From Escherichia coli (GTDB lineage: Bacteria > Pseudomonadota > Gammaproteobacteria > Enterobacterales > Enterobacteriaceae): a stretch of DNA of 64,000 bases. Of this stretch, positions 3,687 to 60,210 are shown in pieces. The notes beneath the pieces are model-generated. The model saw only the letters and a program-made list of their open reading frames with translations. It did not search any database and was not told where the DNA came from. Location of the stretch: the NCBI RefSeq assembly GCF_001677475.2, contig NZ_CP015229.1, one strand, 5' to 3'. Made by a program: the position numbers and the translations under genes. How positions within the stretch are numbered: position 1 is the first letter of the stretch; each line of letters opens with the position of its first letter.

Positions 3687-3933
3687 ATCAAAATGCCAGG
3701 TTTATGGCAACAAGATAGAACCGAGTACGGCACTGGCAAACTCCCTTGAGCATGATGCTGAATACACGACGCGAAAAGGTCTGCTGATATACAAAATCTG
3801 GAATGAGAGTTTAACTCGCGACCCTGATTTGGTGATGTTGCGTTCCGGTGAATTTTCTAAATCACCAGTGCGGGTTTCATTTTGTCCGTTCTGTGGTGAA
3901 AGTCTGAAAACGTGGGAGAACAGAAATGAATGA
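3679..3933 (+). CDS. Hypothetical protein with C-terminal zinc-ribbon-like CxxC
   Basis: 84 aa; CPFCG motif near C-terminus. Confidence 0.4.
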   Translation: MGKSKCQVYGNKIEPSTALANSLEHDAEYTTRKGLLIYKIWNESLTRDPDLVMLRSGEFSKSPVRVSFCPFCGESLKTWENRNE

Positions 3934-4237
3934 AATTAAAGAAATACCAGTAGTACGTGATGAATATGGCTGCTGGACGCATCCTGAATATGAAAAATTC
4001 TGTGATGGTAGAGAACATATTTCAACGGAAGAGTTTAACGCCTGGATGGAGGAAAATAATCTTCAATGGACCATCAGAACTATGGATGAAGATGATTTTA
4101 ATCTGGACGCAGATGGTCCCGATATTGCCTCCTGGAAACCGGAGCGCCCGGAAGGTGAAGGCTGGTTCATTGGTTCAATTCATGACACTGAAGATGGTCC
4201 GGTTTGTGTATGGCTGAGAAATAAGGTTGAAGCATAA
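3926..4237 (+). CDS. Hypothetical protein
   Basis: 103 aa ORF overlapping previous stop (ATGA). Confidence 0.4.
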   Translation: MNEIKEIPVVRDEYGCWTHPEYEKFCDGREHISTEEFNAWMEENNLQWTIRTMDEDDFNLDADGPDIASWKPERPEGEGWFIGSIHDTEDGPVCVWLRNKVEA

Positions 4238-4368
4238 AGGCGATAAACCACCTGACAACAAAACACTGAAAAATTTAAATCAGAAGTGAATTTTATTAAA
4301 TCCTTAACCGGAGGGATTCCTGCACTCTCAGAACATCAGGAGACCGCCCGAAAGGGCGGTAATGAAAA

Positions 4369-4837: not shown

Positions 4838-5029
4838 ATGAACGGACAAATATCAATTGTTCGACCGGGAGCATGTGACGATCGCGAGATACGAATGATT
4901 ATTCGTCTGGCGATGGGGAAAACAATAACTGCTCTCATTACTCCTGAAAATCTCGCATTAGCATTAACAGGAAAGTCAGACCTGCCAATAGAGCTAAAGC
5001 TGCGAAATGTTGAGATTAAGGTGAAATAG
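4838..5029 (+). CDS. Hypothetical small protein
   Basis: ATG at 4838 preceded by AAAGGAGAG RBS; 63 aa. Confidence 0.35.
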   Translation: MNGQISIVRPGACDDREIRMIIRLAMGKTITALITPENLALALTGKSDLPIELKLRNVEIKVK

Positions 5030-5031
5030 TT

Positions 5032-5244
5032 ATGAATACTCTTACCAAAGAATGGTTACAGAACACGATTACCAGCATTGAGTCAGCACGGGATGAAATA
5101 CCATTCGGACTCGATGAAGATCAAAGCAACATGCTTACCGCATTTACATTCCGGCGAGGAGAAGCAACGATTAAGCCGGGTAATGGTATTGAGCAGGCAA
5201 CTCACAGGATGAAATTACCGGAACCGCCGCAGGAGGTGAACTGA
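5032..5244 (+). CDS. Hypothetical protein (N-terminal paralog of 4369..4836)
   Basis: 70 aa; LTKEWLQNTITSIE and NMLTAF match the upstream ORF. Confidence 0.4.
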   Translation: MNTLTKEWLQNTITSIESARDEIPFGLDEDQSNMLTAFTFRRGEATIKPGNGIEQATHRMKLPEPPQEVN

Positions 5245-5639
5245 TGAAAGATGAAGTCGACAATGTTATCACCCTGGTACAGCCAAAATCAGAGGAGGAA
5301 GGACTCCTCAACGTTGTGATAACCGACAGAAAAAGCGGCGAGCAAAAATGCTGTCAGCATATCCGTACAACAATTTCAGAAGTGAATCGTACGATTACCT
5401 GCAACCGGTGTGGATTAGCTTTAGAGCCATTCGAGTTTATTCTCGATCGTGCGAGAAACGGTGAAAACATCGTGTCTGAGATTAAATCACTCTATGCAAA
5501 GCGGGATGCTCTTCGTGAAGCTGTGGCAAAACTTGAACGTGAAGAGAAAAACGCCAAAGCCCGGTTACGAGCAGCCAGGACAGCAATACTGTATGCGGAA
5601 AATGACCTTAAAAATATTGAGCAGGAGGTGAATCGATGA
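5244..5639 (+). CDS. Hypothetical protein with Cys cluster and C-terminal coiled coil
   Basis: 131 aa; CCQH...CNRCG then charged helical tail. Confidence 0.4.
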   Translation: MKDEVDNVITLVQPKSEEEGLLNVVITDRKSGEQKCCQHIRTTISEVNRTITCNRCGLALEPFEFILDRARNGENIVSEIKSLYAKRDALREAVAKLEREEKNAKARLRAARTAILYAENDLKNIEQEVNR

Positions 5640-5843
5640 CCTGGCCTGAGGCATTCACCACGGTAGGAATTGCGATGGCGGTGGCGCTGGTGGTGTATTC
5701 GATTTGCCGCTGGGGATAAATCGCCGAAAAAAGATCCCGACACAAACATGAGCCGGGATCTTTGATTTATATAGCCTACGAATCCGCCAGTAAGAGAGGG
5801 GGCGGATGGTTTATTCTACCACCGGAATGATGTGGGTAAAAAT

Positions 5844-6143
5844 TTATAAGAAATCGGTTTCATAACTTTGCCCACCATGATAGATACCGACAATAAAGAC
5901 TTTTCTGCCATCAACGGCAAAAGCAATAATCGTTCTGTGGCGGAAATGAGTTACCCGCATCCCCTGGCGAATATCATCGCGTTTATTGCCCCGATGCGGG
6001 AATGTAGAAAACCCATCAAGATAATCAAGAAGCGCATTGGCATAATTGTCAGCAATGACGTTCCCTGCTTTCTCCGTTATATATCTGTGCAGGTTGATTA
6101 TTTGTTGTTCGGCCTCAGGAGTAATGATGACTTCATATGTCAT
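5844..6143 (-). CDS. ParE/RelE-family type II toxin
   Basis: 99 aa; start MTYEVIITPEAEQ and end FIVGIYHGGQ are typical of ParE toxins; downstream of antitoxin in same operon. Confidence 0.7.
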   Translation of the reverse strand: MTYEVIITPEAEQQIINLHRYITEKAGNVIADNYANALLDYLDGFSTFPHRGNKRDDIRQGMRVTHFRHRTIIAFAVDGRKVFIVGIYHGGQSYETDFL

Positions 6144-6148
6144 GCAGA

Positions 6149-6406
6149 TTACTTCCCGGATCGAATCGCGGCGCGAACCTGTGAAATGGAGCGTCCGTTG
6201 TTTGGATTTTCGCGGATAGAATCAAGAGAGGGGGCGGCTGAATGCGTTAACCACGCTTCGATTGCTTTATCGCGCTCATTCAGTGCGCGAAGCCCTTCAC
6301 GAATGACCTCGCTTTCTGAAGCATAGGCACCGGAAGCCACACGGGCGCGCACCATGTCAGCCATCTCGTTAGTTAATGTAATGCTGAATTGTTGGGTTGT
6401 ACGCAT
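6149..6406 (-). CDS. ParD-type antitoxin (ribbon-helix-helix)
   Basis: Internal start MRTTQQFSITLTNEMADMVRARV (RHH beta-strand-like) with RBS GAGG upstream; directly upstream of ParE gene. Confidence 0.65.
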   Translation of the reverse strand: MRTTQQFSITLTNEMADMVRARVASGAYASESEVIREGLRALNERDKAIEAWLTHSAAPSLDSIRENPNNGRSISQVRAAIRSGK

Positions 6407-6487
6407 GGTAAACCTCACGGAGTAGGATAGAACACCATTCGATGATAGCACGTTGCCTGTTGACGACAACAGAAATCAGAGACAATA

Positions 6488-6820
6488 TTGCCGCACGCCA
6501 GCCTGAACAACTGGCACCTGCTGCGCCAGCAGAGACAACCGATGGCGCACGATACCAAATTACACAATTCTGATGATTCTGCCGTCTTTGCCAGCAGGCA
6601 CGGGCGGCGTTCCTGCACTTTCAAATCTGACTGGTTCCAGCATGACCCATGCACTGAAGAACAGGCCGAGTGGCTGATTCAGTGCTACCGCAGACACGGA
6701 TACGAGATTAAGAAAGCCCTCAGCCTCGATTATCGTCACTGGATAATCTCCGTCAGGCTTCCTTACTCTGAACGCCCACCACGTCCATCCCGCACATTCC
6801 AGCAACGCATCTGGAGGTAA
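6488..6820 (+). CDS. Hypothetical protein
   Basis: 110 aa ORF ending 1 bp before next gene. Confidence 0.3.
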   Translation: MPHASLNNWHLLRQQRQPMAHDTKLHNSDDSAVFASRHGRRSCTFKSDWFQHDPCTEEQAEWLIQCYRRHGYEIKKALSLDYRHWIISVRLPYSERPPRPSRTFQQRIWR

Positions 6821-6821
6821 C

Positions 6822-7880
6822 ATGCGGGTATTGCTTCGACCTGTTCTGGTACCGGAACTCGGACTGGTTATCGTTAAGCCAGGCCGTGAATCCATGCAGG
6901 TATTCCATAACGGCAGAGTACTGGTGGAACCGGAACCGAAAAGTATGCGCGGTCTGCCGTCCGGAGTCGTTCCTGCCGTTCGCCAGCCGCTGGAGGAGGA
7001 TAAATCATTACTGCCGTTTTTCAGTAACGCACGGGTGATTCGTGCTGCTGGTGGTGCTGGTGCATTGTCTGACTGGCTGTTGCGCCATATTAAATCCTGC
7101 CAGTGGCCACACGGCGATTATCACCACAGTGAAACCGTCATTCACCGTTATGGCGCTGGCGCGATGGTGTTGTGCTGGCACTGCGACAACCAGTTGCGTG
7201 ACCAGACAGCCGAATCACTCGAGCAACTTGCTCATCAAAACCTGTCAGCATGGATGATTGACGTCATCCGTCACGCAATGAATGGCACACAGGAGCGGGA
7301 ATTATCGCTGGCTGAATTATCCTGGTGGGCAGTCTGCAATCAGGTGGCGGACGCGCTACCGGAGACAGTATTACGTCGTTCTCTGAGGTTACGTGCGGAA
7401 AAAATCCGCTCGGTGTATCGCGAAAGCGACATCGTACCGGGAGAGCAGACCGCCACCAGCATACTAAAGCAGCGCACAAAAAATCTTGCGCCGTTGCCTC
7501 ACTCTCATCAGCAACAGAACCCGCCACAGGAAAAGACGGTGGTCAGCATTGCCGTTGATCCGGAGTCACCGGCTCAGTATCTCCAGCGCCAGAAACCACA
7601 ACGGGAAGAGATGCCCGTATACACGCGCTGGGTAAAAACGCAGAAATGCATGACGTGCGGTAATCAGGCAGATGATCCGCATCACATCATTGGTCATGGA
7701 CTGGGAGGGATGGGAACAAAGGCTGATGATTTGTTTGTTATTCCGCTGTGCCGTAAATGTCATAACGAACTGCACGCCGGGGTAAAAGATTTTGAAGAAA
7801 AACACGGCAGCCAGCTGTTGTTGCTGATTCGTTTTTTAATGCACGCGAGAAATTCGGGTGTCCTGAAGTGGAAAGCATGA
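6822..7880 (+). CDS. DUF968/YdfU-like prophage protein with HNH-like C-terminal Cys/His cluster
   Basis: 352 aa; C-terminal CMTCGN...HHIIGHG...CRKCHNELH; size and position upstream of rusA as in lambdoid nin regions; true start uncertain. Confidence 0.5.
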   Translation: MRVLLRPVLVPELGLVIVKPGRESMQVFHNGRVLVEPEPKSMRGLPSGVVPAVRQPLEEDKSLLPFFSNARVIRAAGGAGALSDWLLRHIKSCQWPHGDYHHSETVIHRYGAGAMVLCWHCDNQLRDQTAESLEQLAHQNLSAWMIDVIRHAMNGTQERELSLAELSWWAVCNQVADALPETVLRRSLRLRAEKIRSVYRESDIVPGEQTATSILKQRTKNLAPLPHSHQQQNPPQEKTVVSIAVDPESPAQYLQRQKPQREEMPVYTRWVKTQKCMTCGNQADDPHHIIGHGLGGMGTKADDLFVIPLCRKCHNELHAGVKDFEEKHGSQLLLLIRFLMHARNSGVLKWKA

Positions 7881-8261
7881 ATGACTGAACGCATAGAATT
7901 TGTTTTGCCTTACCCGCCGACGGTAAACACCTACTGGAGACGTCATGGCAATACGTATTTCATCTCGGAAGTCGGAAAGCGTTATCGCCGTGATGTGGCT
8001 CTAATTGTTCGCCAGCAGCGACTGAAATTAAACCTGTCCGGAAGGCTGGCGATAAAGATTATTGCAGAGCCACCGGATAAGCGCCGTCGTGACCTGGACA
8101 ATATCCTGAAAGCACCGCTGGATGCGTTGACGCATGCGGGACTGCTTATCGACGACGAGCAGTTTGATGAAATCAATATTGTGCGCGGTCAGCTTGTTCC
8201 TGGTGGTCGGCTGGGCGTGAAGATTGACGAAATAATGCATGACGGGCAGGTCCAAAAATGA
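7881..8261 (+). CDS. rusA: Holliday junction resolvase RusA
   Basis: 126 aa; YPPTVNTYWR and RRRDLDN motifs match RusA. Confidence 0.8.
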   Translation: MTERIEFVLPYPPTVNTYWRRHGNTYFISEVGKRYRRDVALIVRQQRLKLNLSGRLAIKIIAEPPDKRRRDLDNILKAPLDALTHAGLLIDDEQFDEINIVRGQLVPGGRLGVKIDEIMHDGQVQK

Positions 8262-9079
8262 AACTGGAAGATTTACCGAAATACTATTCCCCAAAATCGC
8301 CAGGCCTGACTGATGCATCCGCCTCGACGTCAAAAGATGCGCTGAGTATCACTGATGTGATGGCTGCGCAGGGTATGACACAGAACCGGGCTGAGATGGG
8401 ATTTTCTGCGTTCCTGGGGAAAATGGGCATTAGTATGAATGACAGGGCGCGGGCAACAGAATTACTGGCAGATTATGCATTAAGTCAGTGCGGTCGTGTG
8501 GCTGCGTTAAGAAAACTTCCGGCAGAGATAAAACCGGCAGTGATGCGCATTATGGCTTCGTACGCTTTTGAGGATTATGCCCGCAGCGCAGCGAGTAAAA
8601 AGCAATGCCCTTGTTGCCGAGGGGAAAAATTTATTGAAAGCGAGGTTTTTACAAACAAGGTTCAGTATCCGGATGGTAAGCCGCCAGTATGGGCAAAGTG
8701 TACAAAAGGCGTGTATCCGTCTTACTGGGAAGAATGGAAAAAAATCCGGGAGGTGGTGAAGGTTTCCTGTCCTGAATGTAAAGGGAAGGGAGAGATTTCG
8801 ACCGCCTGTAAAGACTGCCGTGGGCGTGGTGTAGCCATTCATCGTGAAGAGTCAGAAAAACGGGGTATGCCTGTTATCAGGGACTGCCAGCGTTGTGGCG
8901 GTCGTGGCTATGAAAGACAGCCGTCGACGGAGGCATTTAATGCCATATGTGAGGTGACAAATCAAATAACACGCGCGTCATGGGAAAAAACGGTTAAGCA
9001 ATTCTATGACACTCTGGTGGTTCGGTTTGACATTGAAGAGGCATGGGCGGAGCGGCAGTTAAAAAAGGTAACCAGATAA
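8258..9079 (+). CDS. Late-gene antiterminator Q-like protein
   Basis: 273 aa; multiple CxxC zinc motifs (CPCCRGE, CPECKGKGE, CKDCRGRG, CQRCGGRG); lies after rusA and before a strong terminator, as for Q. Confidence 0.65.
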   Translation: MKLEDLPKYYSPKSPGLTDASASTSKDALSITDVMAAQGMTQNRAEMGFSAFLGKMGISMNDRARATELLADYALSQCGRVAALRKLPAEIKPAVMRIMASYAFEDYARSAASKKQCPCCRGEKFIESEVFTNKVQYPDGKPPVWAKCTKGVYPSYWEEWKKIREVVKVSCPECKGKGEISTACKDCRGRGVAIHREESEKRGMPVIRDCQRCGGRGYERQPSTEAFNAICEVTNQITRASWEKTVKQFYDTLVVRFDIEEAWAERQLKKVTR

Positions 9080-51801: not shown

Positions 51802-52400
51802 TGAGGAAATCAGGCATGAAAATCAGAGCGGTGAAAGGCATCAGAAACGCACATTATCTTGAAAATGGTGCGATTGACTGCGAGGTGTTATTTGAAGGTG
51901 AAACGGAGTTCGCCATGTATACCGCCATACAGGATGATACAGCCCCGACAGGCCAGCACATCTGGCAGGAGCTGCAAAGCGGGAAATGGGGCGAAATCGT
52001 CCCGTTCACCGTCACGCCTGAACTTATTGCAGCGGCAAAGGATGCCAAAAGGCGGGAGATTGAGGCATGGCGCGACAGTCAGGAAAACGTTGAGTTTATT
52101 TTCACGTTTGATGGTCGTCGTTTTGATGGTGGAAAAACCTCGCAGTCACGCCTTGCGCCCGTGGTTGCAACAGCACAGGCCGGACTGCTTCCGGAGGGTT
52201 TTTTCTGGACTGATGCGGATAATAACAACGTCGTACTGACCAGGGAGAAACTTATTGCGCTGAACGATGCCATGATGGTGGCCATGGTGGCGGAGGGCTT
52301 TAAAATCCACGAACGTCAGCGGGAGATGAAAGAGGAGCTGAGTAGCCTCGAGGATTTACACTCAATCAGGAAGTTGCTCGTTAACTCAGAAAAAATTTGA
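51801..52400 (+). CDS. Tail fibre assembly protein (Tfa)
   Basis: 199 aa; immediately downstream of tail fibre gene; Tfa-like. Confidence 0.65.
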   Translation: MRKSGMKIRAVKGIRNAHYLENGAIDCEVLFEGETEFAMYTAIQDDTAPTGQHIWQELQSGKWGEIVPFTVTPELIAAAKDAKRREIEAWRDSQENVEFIFTFDGRRFDGGKTSQSRLAPVVATAQAGLLPEGFFWTDADNNNVVLTREKLIALNDAMMVAMVAEGFKIHERQREMKEELSSLEDLHSIRKLLVNSEKI

Positions 52401-52539
52401 GATACCAAAGACATCAAAGAGGTGCTGGCGGGAAAATATCGCAGATATTAAAAACTGAAAATATACCAATTGGTATACCAAGTTTATACCAAGAACCCAA
52501 AAAGCAAAGGGGCTACCATTTGGTAACCCCTTGATTATT

Positions 52540-52627
52540 TGGCGGAAGCGCAGAGATTCGAACTCTGGAACCCTTTCGGGTCGCCGGTTTTCAAGACCGG
52601 TGCCTTCAACCGCTCGGCCACACTTCC
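52540..52627 (-). tRNA. serT: tRNA-Ser (anticodon UGA)
   Basis: Reverse complement reads GGAAGTGTGGCCGAGCGGTTGAAGGCACCGGTCTTGAAAACCGG...GGTTCGAATCTCTGCGCTTCCGCCA; long variable arm; matches E. coli serT. Confidence 0.9.
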
Positions 52628-53053
52628 GGAATGACGCGCACTATAAACATCCCGATGCGGCGTGTAAACCCCTAATTTGTTTGTTTGCCTGAAAAACAGC
52701 CAAAAGAGCATTGATAGCATGAAATAACAGCAGATTGATCATTTCATCACCATGAATTCCTTCTCTTTTACTCGTTTAGCAACCGGCTAAACATCCCCAC
52801 TGCCCGGCAAAAAGAAAAATAGGTCCATTTTTATCGCTAAAAGATAAATCCACACAGTTTGTATTGTTTTGTGCAAAAGTTTCACTACGCTTTATTAACA
52901 ATACTTTCTGGCGACGTGCGCCAGTGCAGAAGGATGAGCTTTCGTTTTCAGCATCTCACGTGAAGCGATGGTTTGCCTTGCTACAGGGACGTCGCTTGCC
53001 GACCATGTGCGCCCGGTGTCCTGCCGGTGTCGCAAGGAGAAGAGACGTGCGAT

Positions 53054-54172
53054 ATGAATAACGAGGAAACATTTTACCAGGCCATGCGGCGTCAGGGCGT
53101 TACCCGGCGCAGCTTTCTCAAATATTGTAGTCTGGCTGCCACGTCGCTGGGATTAGGCGCGGGAATGGCACCAAAGATTGCCTGGGCGCTGGAGAACAAA
53201 CCGCGCATTCCGGTGGTATGGATCCACGGTCTGGAATGCACCTGCTGTACCGAATCTTTTATCCGCTCCGCTCACCCACTGGCGAAGGACGTCATCCTTT
53301 CCCTGATTTCCCTCGATTACGACGATACTTTGATGGCAGCCGCCGGAACCCAGGCGGAAGAAGTCTTTGAAGACATCATCGCGCAATACAATGGCAAATA
53401 TATCCTCGCAGTAGAAGGTAATCCGCCGCTGGGCGAGCAGGGGATGTTCTGTATCAGCAGCGGACGACCGTTTATTGAGAAACTCAAACGTGCCGCTGCC
53501 GGAGCCAGTGCGATTATCGCCTGGGGAACCTGCGCGTCCTGGGGCTGCGTGCAGGCCGCGCGACCCAATCCGACGCAGGCAACGCCTATCGACAAAGTCA
53601 TCACCGACAAACCTATTATCAAAGTACCTGGCTGCCCGCCGATTCCGGATGTGATGAGCGCCATCATTACTTACATGGTGACCTTTGATCGCTTGCCAGA
53701 TGTCGACAGAATGGGCCGTCCGTTGATGTTCTATGGTCAGCGAATCCACGATAAATGCTATCGCCGCGCTCACTTCGACGCCGGAGAGTTCGTCCAGAGT
53801 TGGGATGATGACGCTGCCCGCAAAGGTTACTGCCTGTACAAAATGGGCTGCAAAGGGCCTACCACCTATAACGCCTGTTCCTCCACACGCTGGAATGATG
53901 GCGTTTCTTTCCCAATCCAGTCTGGTCACGGCTGCCTGGGCTGTGCGGAAAATGGTTTCTGGGATCGCGGTTCGTTCTACAGCCGCGTGGTCGATATTCC
54001 ACAAATGGGCACTCATTCCACCGCCGATACCGTCGGTTTAACCGCGCTTGGCGTGGTAGCAGCGGCTGTTGGTGTGCACGCAGTCGCCAGCGCCGTTGAC
54101 CAGCGCAGACGTCATAACCAGCAACCTACAGAAACCGAACATCAGCCAGGCAATGAGGATAAACAGGCATGA
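53054..54172 (+). CDS. hyaA: Hydrogenase-1 small subunit
   Basis: 372 aa; Tat signal RRSFLK; Cys clusters for FeS; starts [16 protein letters not shown]. Confidence 0.9.
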
Positions 54173-55962
54173 GCACTCAGTACGAAACTCAAGGATACAC
54201 CATCAATAATGCCGGACGCCGCCTGGTGGTCGACCCGATTACGCGCATTGAAGGCCACATGCGCTGCGAAGTGAATATTAACGATCAGAATGTGATCACC
54301 AATGCCGTCTCCTGCGGCACCATGTTTCGCGGGCTGGAGATCATCCTGCAAGGGCGCGACCCGCGCGATGCGTGGGCGTTCGTTGAACGTATCTGCGGCG
54401 TCTGTACTGGTGTACACGCCCTGGCTTCGGTTTACGCCATCGAAGATGCCATCGGTATTAAAGTGCCGGACAACGCCAATATCATCCGCAACATTATGCT
54501 GGCAACGCTCTGGTGCCACGATCATCTGGTGCACTTCTATCAGCTTGCCGGGATGGACTGGATCGATGTGTTAGATGCGCTGAAAGCCGACCCGCGGAAA
54601 ACCTCCGAACTGGCGCAAAGCCTCTCCTCATGGCCGAAATCATCCCCTGGCTATTTCTTCGACGTACAAAACCGCCTGAAGAAATTCGTTGAAGGTGGCC
54701 AGTTGGGGATCTTCCGCAATGGCTACTGGGGGCACCCGCAGTACAAACTGCCGCCAGAAGCCAACCTGATGGGCTTTGCCCACTATCTCGAAGCTCTCGA
54801 TTTCCAGCGTGAAATTGTCAAAATCCACGCGGTCTTTGGCGGTAAAAACCCGCATCCAAACTGGATTGTCGGCGGGATGCCTTGCGCCATTAACATTGAC
54901 GAAAGCGGCGCGGTCGGGGCGGTCAATATGGAACGCCTGAACCTGGTGCAGTCGATTATCACCCGCACGGCGGATTTCATTAACAACGTGATGATCCCCG
55001 ACGCCTTAGCCATTGGTCAGTTCAACAAACCGTGGAGCGAAATCGGCACGGGTCTTTCTGATAAATGTGTCCTCAGCTACGGCGCATTCCCGGATATTGC
55101 CAACGACTTTGGCGAGAAAAGTCTGCTGATGCCTGGCGGCGCGGTGATTAACGGCGACTTTAAAAATGTGCTGCCAGTGGATTTAGTTGATCCGCAGCAG
55201 GTGCAGGAGTTTGTTGACCATGCCTGGTATCGTTATCCCAACGATCAGGTTGGGCGTCATCCGTTCGATGGCATTACCGACCCGTGGTACAACCCCGGCG
55301 ATGTTAAAGGCAGCGATACCAACATTCAGCAGCTGAATGAACAGGAACGCTACTCGTGGATCAAAGCGCCACGCTGGCGCGGTAACGCGATGGAAGTGGG
55401 GCCGCTGGCACGCACGTTAATCGCTTATCACAAAGGCGATGCGGCGACCGTTGAGTCGGTCGATCGCATGATGTCGGCGTTGAACCTGCCACTTTCCGGC
55501 ATCCAGTCAACGTTGGGCCGCATTTTGTGCCGCGCGCACGAAGCGCAGTGGGCCGCAGGTAAGTTGCAGTATTTCTTCGACAAGCTGATGACCAATCTCA
55601 AAAACGGCAATCTTGCCACCGCCTCCACTGAAAAATGGGAACCTGCAACCTGGCCGACAGAGTGCCGTGGTGTCGGTTTTACCGAAGCGCCGCGCGGGGC
55701 GTTAGGCCACTGGGCTGCCATTCGCGATGGCAAGATTGATCTCTACCAGTGCGTGGTGCCGACCACCTGGAACGCCAGCCCGCGCGATCCTAAAGGGCAA
55801 ATTGGCGCTTATGAAGCGGCGCTGATGAACACCAAAATGGCGATCCCCGAGCAACCGCTGGAGATCCTGCGTACTCTGCACAGCTTTGATCCGTGCCTCG
55901 CCTGTTCAACACACGTGCTGGGCGACGACGGTAGCGAGCTGATCTCCGTGCAGGTGCGTTAA
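54169..55962 (+). CDS. hyaB: Hydrogenase-1 large subunit
   Basis: 597 aa; N-terminal RICGVC and C-terminal DPCLACSTH NiFe ligands. Confidence 0.9.
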
Positions 55963-55980
55963 CAGCGAAGGAGAATCATC

Positions 55981-56688
55981 ATGCAACAGAAAAGCGACAA
56001 CGTTGTCAGCCACTATGTCTTTGAAGCGCCAGTGCGTATCTGGCACTGGCTGACGGTGTTATGCATGGCGGTGTTGATGGTCACCGGTTACTTTATCGGC
56101 AAGCCGCTGCCTTCGGTCAGCGGTGAGGCGACGTATCTGTTCTATATGGGCTACATCAGGTTAATTCACTTCAGCGCCGGGATGGTTTTTACCGTGGTCT
56201 TGCTGATGCGGATCTACTGGGCTTTTGTCGGCAATCGCTACTCACGCGAGCTTTTCATCGTGCCAGTATGGCGTAAAAGCTGGTGGCAGGGCGTGTGGTA
56301 TGAAATCCGCTGGTATCTGTTTCTGGCAAAACGTCCGAGTGCCGATATTGGCCATAACCCCATCGCCCAGGCGGCGATGTTCGGCTATTTCCTGATGTCA
56401 GTTTTTATGATCATCACCGGCTTTGCGCTCTACAGCGAACACAGCCAGTACGCTATTTTTGCGCCGTTCCGTTATGTGGTGGAATTTTTCTACTGGACGG
56501 GCGGCAACTCAATGGACATTCACAGCTGGCATCGGCTGGGGATGTGGCTGATTGGCGCGTTTGTGATCGGTCATGTCTACATGGCGCTGCGTGAAGATAT
56601 CATGTCCGACGACACGGTGATCTCCACCATGGTCAACGGCTACCGTAGCCACAAATTTGGCAAAATAAGTAACAAGGAGCGTTCATGA
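55981..56688 (+). CDS. hyaC: Hydrogenase-1 cytochrome b subunit
   Basis: 235 aa, four TM segments with conserved His. Confidence 0.85.
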
Positions 56689-57272
56689 GCGAGCAACGCG
56701 TGGTGGTAATGGGGCTGGGCAACCTGCTGTGGGCCGATGAAGGTTTCGGCGTGCGGGTGGCGGAACGGCTGTATGCCCATTACCACTGGCCCGAGTATGT
56801 GGAGATTGTCGATGGCGGTACTCAGGGACTGAACTTGCTGGGGTATGTCGAAAGCGCCAGCCATCTGTTGATTCTCGATGCCATTGACTACGGGCTGGAA
56901 CCTGGAACGCTGCGAACCTATGCCGGAGAACGCATTCCGGCTTATCTCAGCGCGAAGAAAATGAGCCTGCACCAGAACAGTTTCTCCGAAGTGCTGGCGC
57001 TGGCAGATATCCGCGGACATCTGCCAGCACATATTGCCCTCGTCGGTCTGCAACCCGCAATGCTCGACGACTACGGCGGCAGCCTGAGCGAACTGGCACG
57101 GGAGCAACTGCCCGCTGCTGAACAATCGGCGCTGGCGCAGCTGGCTGCATGGGGAATTGTGCCGCAACCGGCTAATGAATCGCGCTGTCTCAATTATGAC
57201 TGTCTGTCGATGGAAAATTACGAAGGCGTTCGCTTGCGCCAGTACCGGATGACACTGGAGGAGCAGGGATGA
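56685..57272 (+). CDS. hyaD: Hydrogenase-1 maturation protease
   Basis: 195 aa; GxGN...D.G HybD/HyaD-like. Confidence 0.85.
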
Positions 57273-57667
57273 GCAACGACACGCCATTTGATGCGTTGTG
57301 GCAACGAATGCTGGCGCGCGGCTGGACGCCGATCAGTGAATCCCGTCTTGACGACTGGCTTACGCAAGCGCCAGACGGCGTGGTGTTATTAAGCAGTGAC
57401 CCGAAACGCACGCCAGAGGTCAGCGATAATCCGGTAATGATTGGCGAATTACTGCGCGAGTTTCCCGACTACACATGGCAGGTGGCGATTGCTGACCTTG
57501 AGCAGAGCGAAGCCATCGGCGATCGCTTTGGCGTCTTTCGCTTTCCCGCCACTTTAGTGTTTACCGGCGGAAACTATCGCGGCGTGCTGAATGGTATTCA
57601 CCCGTGGGCGGAACTGATAAACCTGATGCGTGGGCTTGTCGAACCACAACAGGAGCGTGCCTCATGA
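57269..57667 (+). CDS. hyaE: Hydrogenase-1 operon protein HyaE
   Basis: 132 aa, operon position. Confidence 0.8.
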
Positions 57668-58521
57668 GCGAAACTTTTTTCCATCTGCTGGGGCCAGGAA
57701 CGCAACCGAACGATGACAGTTTCAGCATGAATCCACTGCCGATCACCTGTCAGGTGAATGATGAACCGAGTATGGCGGCCCTGGAACAATGTGCTCACAG
57801 CCCGCAGGTGATTGCGCTGTTAAACGAGTTACAACATCAACTAAGTCAACGCCAGCCGCCGTTGGGCGAGGTGCTGGCAGTCGATCTGTTAAATCTCAAC
57901 GCCGACGATCGTCACTTTATCAATACGCTTCTCGGGGAAGGGGAAGTGTCAGTGCGCATTCAGCAGGCTGACGACAGTGAAAGTGAAATACAGGAGGCGA
58001 TCTTCTGCGGATTATGGCGGGTGCGCAGACGTCGCGGCGACAAGTTGCTGGAGGACAAACTGGAGGCTGGCTGCGCGCCGCTGGCGTTGTGGCAGGCGGC
58101 AACGCAAAATCTCTTGCCGACAGATTCGCTGTTACCGCCGCCCATTGATGGCCTGATGAATGGCCTACCGTTGGCGCATGAGTTACTGGCACATGTACGT
58201 AACCCCGACGCGCAGCCGCACAGCATTAATCTGACGCAATTACCCATCAGCGAGGCTGATCGGCTTTTTCTCTCACGTCTCTGTGGGCCGGGAAATATTC
58301 AGATTCGTACCATTGGCTATGGCGAGAGCTATATCAACGCCACGGGGTTACGCCATGTCTGGCATTTACGCTGCACGGACACCTTAAAAGGCCCGTTACT
58401 TGAGAGTTATGAAATCTGCCCGATACCGGAAGTGGTGCTGGCAGCGCCAGAAGATTTGGTCGACTCTGCGCAGCGGCTTAGTGAGGTATGTCAGTGGCTG
58501 GCGGGAGGGGCACCGTCGTAA
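57664..58521 (+). CDS. hyaF: Hydrogenase-1 operon protein HyaF
   Basis: 285 aa from [10 protein letters not shown]; operon position. Confidence 0.8.
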
Positions 58522-58654
58522 AAAGACGGTAAGTATCGCTTTCAGGCTTATGAATATCGCAATCGGCGAATACCTCTGGTCGTAGAGTTTCAGGATAAAG
58601 AGGGAGATCTACCATTAACGGGTTATTTTTCTCTCTTCGCCTACAGGAGTGCGC

Positions 58655-60199
58655 ATGTGGGATGTCATTGATTTATCGCGCTGGCAGTTTGCTCTGACCG
58701 CGCTGTATCACTTTTTATTTGTACCCCTTACCCTGGGGCTGATTTTTTTGCTGGCTATCATGGAAACCATTTACGTGGTCACCGGCAAAACAATCTACCG
58801 CGATATGACGCGCTTCTGGGGTAAGCTCTTCGGTATCAACTTTGCTCTTGGCGTGGCTACCGGCCTGACGATGGAGTTTCAGTTTGGTACTAACTGGTCA
58901 TTCTATTCCAACTATGTGGGCGATATTTTTGGCGCACCGCTGGCGATGGAAGCATTAATGGCCTTCTTCCTCGAATCCACCTTTGTCGGGCTGTTCTTCT
59001 TCGGCTGGCAACGGCTGAATAAATACCAGCACCTGCTGGTGACGTGGCTGGTGGCGTTCGGTTCAAATCTCTCTGCGTTGTGGATATTGAATGCCAACGG
59101 TTGGATGCAATACCCGACCGGTGCGCATTTTGATATCGACACCCTTCGTATGGAAATGACCAGCTTCAGCGAGCTGGTCTTTAACCCGGTCAGCCAGGTG
59201 AAATTTGTGCACACCGTAATGGCGGGCTACGTGACCGGGGCCATGTTTATTATGGCGATCAGCGCCTGGTATTTACTGCGCGGACGGGAGCGCGATGTCG
59301 CATTACGCTCGTTTGCCATCGGTTCCGTCTTCGGTACTCTGGCGATTATCGGCACGCTGCAACTCGGAGACAGTTCTGCGTATGAAGTCGCGCAAGTACA
59401 ACCGGTAAAACTGGCGGCGATGGAAGGGGAGTGGCAAACGGAACCTGCACCTGCACCGTTCCATGTGGTTGCCTGGCCGGAACAGGATCAAGAGCGTAAC
59501 GCCTTTGCTATCAAAATTCCCGCGCTGCTAGGGATCCTCGCCACTCACTCATTAGATAAACCCGTGCCGGGTCTGAAGAATTTGATGGCTGAAACCTACC
59601 CACGCTTGCAACGCGGACGTATGGCCTGGCTGTTAATGCAGGAAATATCGCAAGGCAATCGTGAGCCGCATGTGTTGCAGGCATTCCGGGAGCTGGAAGG
59701 CGACCTTGGTTACGGCATGTTGCTCTCCCGCTATGCGCCGGATATGAATCATGTCACAGCCGCACAGTACCAGGCGGCGATGCGTGGCGCGATACCTCAG
59801 GTTGCGCCGGTATTCTGGAGTTTCCGCATCATGGTGGGCTGTGGTTCCCTGCTGCTACTGGTGATGCTGATTGCGCTTGTCCAGACGCTGCGTGGCAAAA
59901 TCGACCAGCATCGCTGGGTGCTGAAAATGGCGCTCTGGAGTTTGCCGCTGCCGTGGATTGCGATTGAAGCCGGGTGGTTTATGACCGAGTTTGGTCGTCA
60001 GCCGTGGGCGATACAGGACATCTTACCGACATACTCCGCGCACTCCGCTTTAACCACAGGACAACTGGCTTTCTCACTGATCATGATCGTAGGGCTTTAC
60101 ACCCTGTTCTTAATCGCCGAAGTCTACCTGATGCAGAAATATGCCCGTCTGGGGCCGAGCGCGATGCAGAGTGAACAACCGACGCAGCAACAGGGGTAA
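58655..60199 (+). CDS. appC: Cytochrome bd-II ubiquinol oxidase subunit I
   Basis: 514 aa from [29 protein letters not shown]; CydA-like. Confidence 0.9.
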
Positions 60200-60210
60200 A
60201 GGAGAAAATC

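Follow-up and report, generated by a model that had tools for sequence, protein, structure and literature searches.

The best-described relatives of the locus studied here belong to the ParD1/3/4-ParE1/3/4 group of toxin-antitoxin systems, which comprises Caulobacter ParDE1 (3kxe), Mesorhizobium ParDE3 (5ceg/6x0a), M. tuberculosis ParDE1 (8c24) and P. aeruginosa ParDE1 (6xrw), with parDE of plasmid RK2 as the prototype. ParD antitoxins are known to wrap around their toxin, and their C-terminal region is normally disordered in the free protein. The cryptic prophages of E. coli O157:H7 carry a different arrangement, PaaR2-PaaA2-ParE2 (5cw7), which has three components, including an antitoxin that is not of the ribbon-helix-helix (RHH) type and a separate regulator. 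ParE toxins range from non-toxic to potent, some having no measurable toxicity when over-expressed, and the filamentation that they cause is consistent with inhibition of DNA gyrase, which can trigger the SOS response (PMC6813445). Gyrase inhibition has been reported for ParE of P. aeruginosa (PMC6813445) and for ParE of M. tuberculosis (PMC10899793). E. coli O157 ParE2 is reported to lack it (PMC8706911), and a ParE-type fold is no guarantee of a gyrase target. Within a prophage, the ParE_SO/CopA_SO pair of Shewanella oneidensis (7etr) serves to maintain CP4So once it has excised, and the antitoxin of the pair, an RHH protein, binds to inverted repeats in its own promoter (PMC8706911).

In the window, by which we mean the whole 64,000-nt stretch of DNA that was analysed, a pair of this kind occupies positions 5844-6406, which is exactly the span of its two coding sequences. 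Both genes lie on the minus strand. The first, parD (6149-6406), encodes an 85-aa RHH antitoxin, with the RHH domain at about residues 6-51 followed by a C-terminal region predicted to bind the toxin, and the second, parE (5844-6143), encodes a 99-aa toxin of the ParE branch of the RelE/ParE superfamily. Five nucleotides separate the parD stop codon (TAA, 6151-6149) from the parE ATG at 6143. We place the parD start at the ATG at 6406, which has a GAGG 6 nt upstream; the open reading frame listing extends the same frame to an upstream TTG at 6469 (entry 6149-6469), and the equivalent of the ATG start is the one used by RefSeq and by the gene calls in other genomes, whose products are 85-91 aa long. 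A plus-strand ORF of 152 aa (5868-6326) overlaps the pair, and with two well-supported minus-strand genes at this place we treated it as a shadow ORF.

The pair is the only antisense unit in the surrounding early stretch. Preceding it on the plus strand are genes for a YdaT-like protein, an HTH replication-type protein, a DUF977 protein and several unknowns, and following it are genes for a 92-aa unknown, a DUF968/HNH protein, RusA and antiterminator Q. These surroundings are the early-right (nin-proximal) operon of a lambdoid prophage, whose end is a tRNA-Ser adjoining hya/app chromosomal genes of the Escherichia host. Since every other sizeable ORF with a family match between 816 and about 13 kb is on the plus strand, the earlier note was right to describe the pair as lying antisense within an early/nin region.

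The assignment of both proteins to ParE and ParD families, which the earlier note had proposed as a check on its 99-aa ParE-like toxin and its RHH antitoxin of about 85 aa, holds, both proteins scoring above curated family thresholds. ParE matched Pfam PF05016 (ParE_toxin) with E=3.2e-10 and 40.9 bits against a gathering score of 23, the alignment running end to end from residues 5-94 on positions 1-89 of the 89-position profile, and it matched PHROG 5232 ('toxin') with E=3.4e-43. NCBIfam lacks a model specific to this toxin. Searched alone against the PDB, the ParE sequence gave only a weak best match, to a Mesorhizobium ParE at E=0.007. A profile built from 89 homologues, gathered in two database searches, matched ten ParE-type chains at E values from 1e-11 to 7e-4, and at E<1e-4 it matched ParE toxins only. 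Among these matches were M. tuberculosis ParE1, P. aeruginosa ParE1, Caulobacter ParE1, E. coli O157 ParE2 and V. cholerae ParE2; the first three and Mesorhizobium ParE were matched at E values of 1e-11 to 2e-7, and E. coli O157 ParE2 at 3.6e-5.

Because the RefSeq name, 'RelE/ParE family toxin', leaves the branch of the superfamily open, we predicted the structure of the toxin. The AF2 model made from the homologue alignment (pLDDT 90.6, pTM 0.81) has a strand (residues 4-7), a two-helix hairpin (9-26 and 28-46) and a three-stranded antiparallel sheet (62-67, 71-78 and 81-89). In a Foldseek search of the PDB with this model, the top 23 structures were all ParE-type toxins (TM 0.72-0.84, rmsd 1.4-2.6 Å), and the best matches, at TM 0.78-0.84, included ParE from Mesorhizobium, P. 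aeruginosa, M. tuberculosis, V. cholerae, Caulobacter and E. coli O157, although sequence identity to any solved ParE is 13-24%. The RelE-like RNases YoeB, HigB2, YafQ and RelK scored TM 0.43-0.64 with rmsd 3.3-6.2 Å. That ParE-type structures outscore these RNases places the toxin, at the level of a predicted model, in the ParE branch.

For the antitoxin, the family frame is PF03693/TIGR02606, corresponding to COG3609 RHH proteins. ParD matched Pfam PF03693 (ParD_antitoxin) with E=1.6e-7 and 32.1 bits (cut-off 21), the NCBI curated ParD model TIGR02606 with 53.8 bits (cut-off 46.2) and PHROG 6494 ('antitoxin') with E=1.7e-56. Its sequence matches in the PDB are ParD antitoxins (3kxe_C, 7ycv, 7b22, 8c24_C and 5ceg_A) over residues 3-51, and its first 51 residues align to ParD of Caulobacter, Vibrio, Mesorhizobium and M. 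tuberculosis. Its 2,657 homologues carry, where a name is given, the names ParD, ParD1/3/4, CopG-family antidote or RHH protein. To model the contact between the two proteins, ParD and ParE were fused through a (GGGGS)5 linker, with an alignment of six natural pairs and unpaired homologues anchored on the linker. In the resulting AF2 model, residues 51-80 of ParD have a pLDDT of 94-96, and pTM is 0.71 despite the disordered 25-aa linker. The predicted order of residues 51-80 is suggestive of a C-terminus that folds onto ParE, as would be expected from the wrap-around mode of binding.

Upstream of parD, a consensus scan together with conservation identified a candidate sigma-70 promoter on the minus strand (6442-6469), with a -35 element TTGTCG (6469-6464), a 16-nt spacer and an extended -10 element TGcTATCAT (to 6442). 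Both elements are conserved in the homologous loci of E. coli, Yersinia and Enterobacter. Overlapping the -35 element is a perfect 16-bp palindrome, CTGTTGACGACAACAG (6457-6472; CTGTTG-ACGA-CAACAG, 6+4+6), a candidate ParD operator, which is found at one place in the window where chance would give 0.01 occurrences and whose core, TGTTGnnnnCAACA, is kept in the 87%-identical O157 variant. Between the -10 element and the Shine-Dalgarno sequence, also on the minus strand, lies a conserved box, AATgGTGTTCTATCCTACT (6421-6439), a candidate second operator or 5'-UTR element. The box hardly varies among those loci of E. coli, Yersinia and Enterobacter that encode toxins sharing only 63-69% identity with ParE of the window. 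Palindrome, promoter elements and box would together fit the operator region of an RHH antitoxin.

On the other side of the pair, an inverted repeat between the convergent plus-strand early genes and parDE folds as a putative bidirectional intrinsic terminator (5730-5763; stem 5730-5744/5749-5763). On the minus-strand RNA (5763-5730) the hairpin is followed by UUUUUU and has a fold z-score of -3.6; on the plus strand, where UUUGAUUUAU comes after it, it makes a weaker terminator. A compensatory A>C / T>G change preserves the stem in one of the compared loci (L004). We accepted this hairpin, with its 14-nt loop, as a terminator from folding; the default terminator scan did not flag it, and its sole flag was a weak site inside parE (5922-5903). 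As the stem reads as a terminator on both strands, it may separate the convergent early genes from the pair. Directly beyond the parE stop codon is a second, G+C-rich hairpin, ATCCGCC ... GGCGGAT (5782-5807; stem 5782-5788/5801-5807), which forms in folds of both strands and is conserved in all loci. An Rfam search at E<=1 over positions 5000-7000 returned no known RNA, neither a sok-like nor any other catalogued antisense RNA. We infer the promoter, operator and terminator from consensus or conservation. With the palindrome upstream of parD and the two hairpins beyond parE, the flanking hairpins described in the earlier note are present, and its two-gene minus-strand operon agrees with genes lying 5 nt apart that have a promoter-like site and a terminator of their own and are presumably co-transcribed.

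Selection was compared over six loci, the window and five others. Both parD and parE were intact in all loci examined, and for both genes dN/dS was 0.04-0.28 in all pairs of loci divergent enough to yield a value; purifying selection acts on both. More distant relatives of the toxin, 51-69% identical, are found in Yersinia prophages, an Enterobacter ludwigii island and a Desulfovibrio chromosome, and in all three a PF03693 gene lies directly upstream of the toxin gene, with a gap of 5 nt or an overlap of 1-4 nt. Matches to family HMMs, the predicted fold, the conservation of the pairing and the purifying selection all support the identity of the locus as a type II operon of ParD (RHH) and ParE, as do a putative promoter and terminator of its own.

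We searched 5,426 complete E. coli genomes with a 681-bp query over both genes and found matches in 364, all of them chromosomal; in 327 of these at least 80% of the query was covered at one place. Among the matches listed, the annotated features beneath them are a RelE/ParE toxin and a ParD antitoxin. Some part of a 2.9-kb stretch around the pair was matched in 4,625 genomes. Because the surroundings are matched in part in so many more genomes than the pair itself, parDE is optional cargo. The Stx2c prophage of strain RM10466 carries the pair at the same position, and the window translations of ParE and ParD are identical to its gene products WP_000220600.1 and WP_001260977.1, respectively. 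Stx2a phages also have the pair, namely ArgO145 and two more. It is already catalogued, its proteins being annotated in RefSeq, in PHROGs and in a deposited phage genome that labels them putative toxin and antitoxin components; our literature search found no experimental study of this particular ParD-ParE pair.

In ArgO145 the pair is placed near the integrase end and not beside the DUF968 gene. As delimited by blastn, the block shared between the two positions extends over 838 bp (5634-6471) at 98% identity. Its right edge falls just past the -35 element and the palindrome, and its left edge lies where a small plus-strand ORF starts, one that encodes a hydrophobic 27-aa product, MTWPEAFTTVGIAMAVALVVYSICRWG (5636-5719), and has an AGGAGG Shine-Dalgarno sequence and an ATGA overlap with the upstream gene. 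Differences between loci in this ORF are mostly synonymous. A role as a third component, for example as a small membrane toxin, was considered and rejected, as the ORF turns up in 93 phage records, among them phages that lack parDE; it resembles a conserved recombination joint. Phage 933W has this ORF too, with the hokW/sokW type I system directly after it. In Qin of K-12, relBE-hokD is located upstream of ydfU, a DUF968 gene, with rem between. As hok/sok of 933W and relBE-hokD of Qin occupy slots equivalent to that of parDE, the site is a recurrent slot for toxin-antitoxin cargo. The pair has its own promoter-like site and terminator and is present or absent as a unit among related phages. 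We therefore regard it as a self-contained type II toxin-antitoxin 'moron' of a lambdoid prophage.

Stx2a phages of O157:H7 keep an intact ParD allele and its promoter without parE. At 80-90% identity, the parDE query matched 45 phage records and 37 genomes, and the matches listed cover the antitoxin half only. In the one such locus examined (L002), parE ends after five conserved codons, and in its place are an ORF for an unrelated 93-aa lipoprotein-like product and a HigA-like HTH gene; a search beside this orphan parD for a parE remnant found none past the first 5 codons. For the orphan ParD, dN/dS is 0.03 in the RHH domain versus 0.24 in the C-terminal part. We speculate that an antitoxin retained under selection in this way is what an anti-addiction role would predict.

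Taken together, we consider it likely that the locus is a functional ParDE toxin-antitoxin module. Drawing on established ParDE biology, we propose that a ParD dimer would bind the palindrome and the conserved box over the promoter and repress parDE, and that the C-terminal region of ParD would wrap ParE and neutralize it, with ParD turning over faster than ParE. Should ParD synthesis stop, whether by loss or excision of the prophage or by shut-off of transcription by an infecting phage, free ParE would build up and most likely trap DNA gyrase on DNA, leading to double-strand breaks, an SOS response, filamentation and either arrested growth or death. Cells that lose the prophage, or infected cells, would thereby be removed, which amounts to addiction and possibly also abortive-infection defence. 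In the lysogen, the convergent bidirectional terminator may insulate parDE from un-antiterminated early transcription. The earlier note had suggested prophage-stabilising addiction or abortive-infection cargo as the role of the pair, which is a standard and reasonable inference.

Other readings of the locus differ from this proposal at different steps. That ParE poisons DNA gyrase is, on balance, the most probable mode of action. We doubt, while granting it some weight, the reading in which the pair is genuine and its toxin has a ParE fold but a target other than gyrase. Precedents for such a target have been reported in E. coli O157 ParE2 and in PrpT and PfiT, ParE-like toxins linked to phages or plasmids, and the latter two (7ycs, TM 0.84; 9w3a, TM 0.81-0.82) rank with the best structural matches of our model. 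The aromatic residue that VcParE2 needs for its interaction with gyrase, Trp25, is described as poorly conserved across the family, and by hand alignment to VcParE2, it presumably falls on Ala26 of the toxin here. The profile nevertheless lies nearer to the Mesorhizobium, M. tuberculosis, P. aeruginosa and Caulobacter toxins (1e-11 to 2e-7) than to E. coli O157 ParE2 (4e-5), the member reported not to inhibit gyrase (PMC8706911), and that nearer set includes the P. aeruginosa (PMC6813445) and M. tuberculosis (PMC10899793) toxins reported to inhibit gyrase. A more radical departure, in which the toxin would be a RelE-like ribosome-dependent mRNA endonuclease, has almost no credence with us. PF05016 does fall within the RelE/ParE superfamily and the RefSeq name is generic, but the 23 top structures are all ParE-type, with the RelE-like RNases superposing poorly, the profile search matches ParE chains first and the partner is an RHH antitoxin of the ParD type.

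Further readings concern what the pair is selected for, if anything. Its selected function might be defence of the lysogen against other phages by abortive infection, or prophage competition, and not stabilization of its own prophage; we hold this to be possible but on the unlikely side. It would suit optional cargo in a slot that elsewhere holds hok/sok or relBE-hokD, and the intact orphan ParD of the O157:H7 Stx2a phages would be understandable as a shield against the ParE of a competitor. Neither ParD nor ParE, however, matched any family of the PADLOC-DB v2 defence models at E<=0.1, a literature search of titles and abstracts gave no paper aiming to show phage defence by ParDE, and the documented precedent for a prophage ParE is maintenance after excision (PMC8706911); addiction and defence are, moreover, not mutually exclusive. 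A bolder form, which we think improbable, makes parDE a weapon in conflict between prophages and a modulator of induction, not an addiction module only, with the orphan ParD serving to block addiction by competitor phages that carry ParE, or to give immunity against them. Because gyrase poisoning of the ParE type gives DNA breaks and SOS, release of ParE in an SOS-inducible lambdoid or Stx prophage could affect repressor cleavage, induction and Shiga-toxin output. Finally, it is very unlikely that the pair is a decaying or attenuated remnant hitch-hiking in the prophage, as might be imagined from the loss of the toxin in one phage lineage and from ParE toxins that show no measurable toxicity when over-expressed (PMC6813445): against this stand ORFs intact at all loci examined, the low dN/dS, a regulatory region conserved across genera and the 327 E. 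coli genomes with at least 80% of the query.

The cassette rides in Shiga-toxin-converting phages, namely ArgO145 and the Stx2c prophage of RM10466, and a toxin that poisons gyrase might in principle, within a prophage inducible by SOS, affect how well that prophage is retained, its induction or the production of toxin. The recurrent slot for differing toxin-antitoxin systems would illustrate how lambdoid phages exchange cargo. The practical value of the analysis is correct annotation, as a genuine ParDE module of a familiar type.

Set beside the described systems, the locus most resembles the ParD1/3/4-ParE1/3/4 group. It shares with that group the RHH antitoxin gene first and the toxin gene second in one operon, the same HMM families, the predicted toxin fold, a ParD C-terminus predicted to be ordered with ParE and a palindrome at the promoter; it differs in being phage cargo antisense to an early operon and in its low identity (13-24%) to the solved ParE toxins. 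ParE_SO/CopA_SO, likewise a prophage-borne ParE-type toxin with an RHH antitoxin, offers the closest functional parallel, although it is distant (profile E=2e-4; Foldseek TM 0.59) and belongs to another phage type and host. PaaR2-PaaA2-ParE2 also places a ParE-fold toxin in E. coli lambdoid prophages (TM 0.78-0.79), but its toxin is reported not to inhibit gyrase (PMC8706911) and has weaker profile similarity (E=3.6e-5), and the locus here is a classical two-gene ParD-ParE system. The relBE-hokD and hokW/sokW systems of Qin and 933W are, like parDE, toxin-antitoxin morons of lambdoid phages in equivalent cargo slots; their toxins, an RNase and a membrane peptide, are of families unrelated to ParE, and relBE is co-oriented with the early genes of Qin, whereas parDE here is antisense. 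In its anatomy, the pair does not depart from the known kind.

The ParD antitoxin is also found without its toxin. In the Stx2a phages of O157:H7, the ParD allele and its promoter are intact (87% nucleotide identity), as seen in E. coli O157:H7 3-5-1 (locus L002, from NZ_CP038416.1), where the orphan parD stretch at L002 2694–3277 is homologous to window 6130–6471. In this locus parE is lost beyond codon 5, and its place is taken by a 93-aa lipoprotein-like ORF and a HigA-like HTH gene. The ribbon-helix-helix (RHH) domain of the orphan ParD has a dN/dS of 0.03. We consider orphan ParD a possible candidate for an anti-addiction or immunity factor.

A homologous ParD-ParE pair was present at 3738–4288 in prophage loci from Yersinia enterocolitica assemblies (L008–L010), with a toxin that is 68–69% identical. 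There, the pair is flanked by ERF or anti-repressor genes on one side and by sieB/cI on the other, and it lies antisense to these neighbors, as in the window. The antisense-cargo layout thus recurs, in a different phage region. Within the window, the 16 bp palindrome upstream of parDE, a candidate ParD operator, is shared with a promoter-like site on the plus strand (TTGACG ... AATATT, 6460–6489) that points toward a 92-aa plus-strand ORF (6542–6820) preceding DUF968. If ParD binds the palindrome, this divergent promoter could also be affected.

An unannotated plus-strand ORF (5636–5719), encoding a 27-aa hydrophobic peptide (MTWPEAFTTVGIAMAVALVVYSICRWG), marks a mosaic joint. It is preceded by the ribosome-binding site AGGAGG and shares an ATGA overlap with the stop codon of the gene before it. 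Changes between loci are mainly synonymous. The ORF is contained in 93 phage records, placed behind various ea-type genes, and in phage 933W it is followed directly by the type I toxin-antitoxin system hokW/sokW.

Further downstream, window 13689–29602 appears to be a second phage-like integrative element, inside or adjoining the prophage terminase gene. In order, this interval holds a large-terminase ORF cut off past the start of its nuclease domain (13689–14882), a tyrosine integrase (14822–16111), a RepA-like AAA_25 helicase (19927–21336), a capsid (23609–24754), a portal (25276–26580) and a complete TerL (27941–29602); a second portal lies at 31049–32290. E. coli UMNF18 and 042 match the interval in part, with similar features there (integrase, capsid, terminase). 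The chromosomal flank (52400–64000), comprising tRNA-Ser (52540–52627) and then the hya and app operons, reached a best identity of just 98.1–98.2% against 5,426 complete E. coli genomes, and from this sequence comparison the host may belong to a lineage without close representatives among them.

At 9640–10631, between antiterminator Q (8258–9079) and tRNA-Met/tRNA-Arg genes, lies an AraC-family regulator gene, followed by a TerB-like ORF (10805–11230). The regulator gene sits in the late-promoter-proximal slot, which in Stx phages, such as the prophage of RM10466 that carries identical ParD and ParE proteins, is instead occupied by the stx genes.
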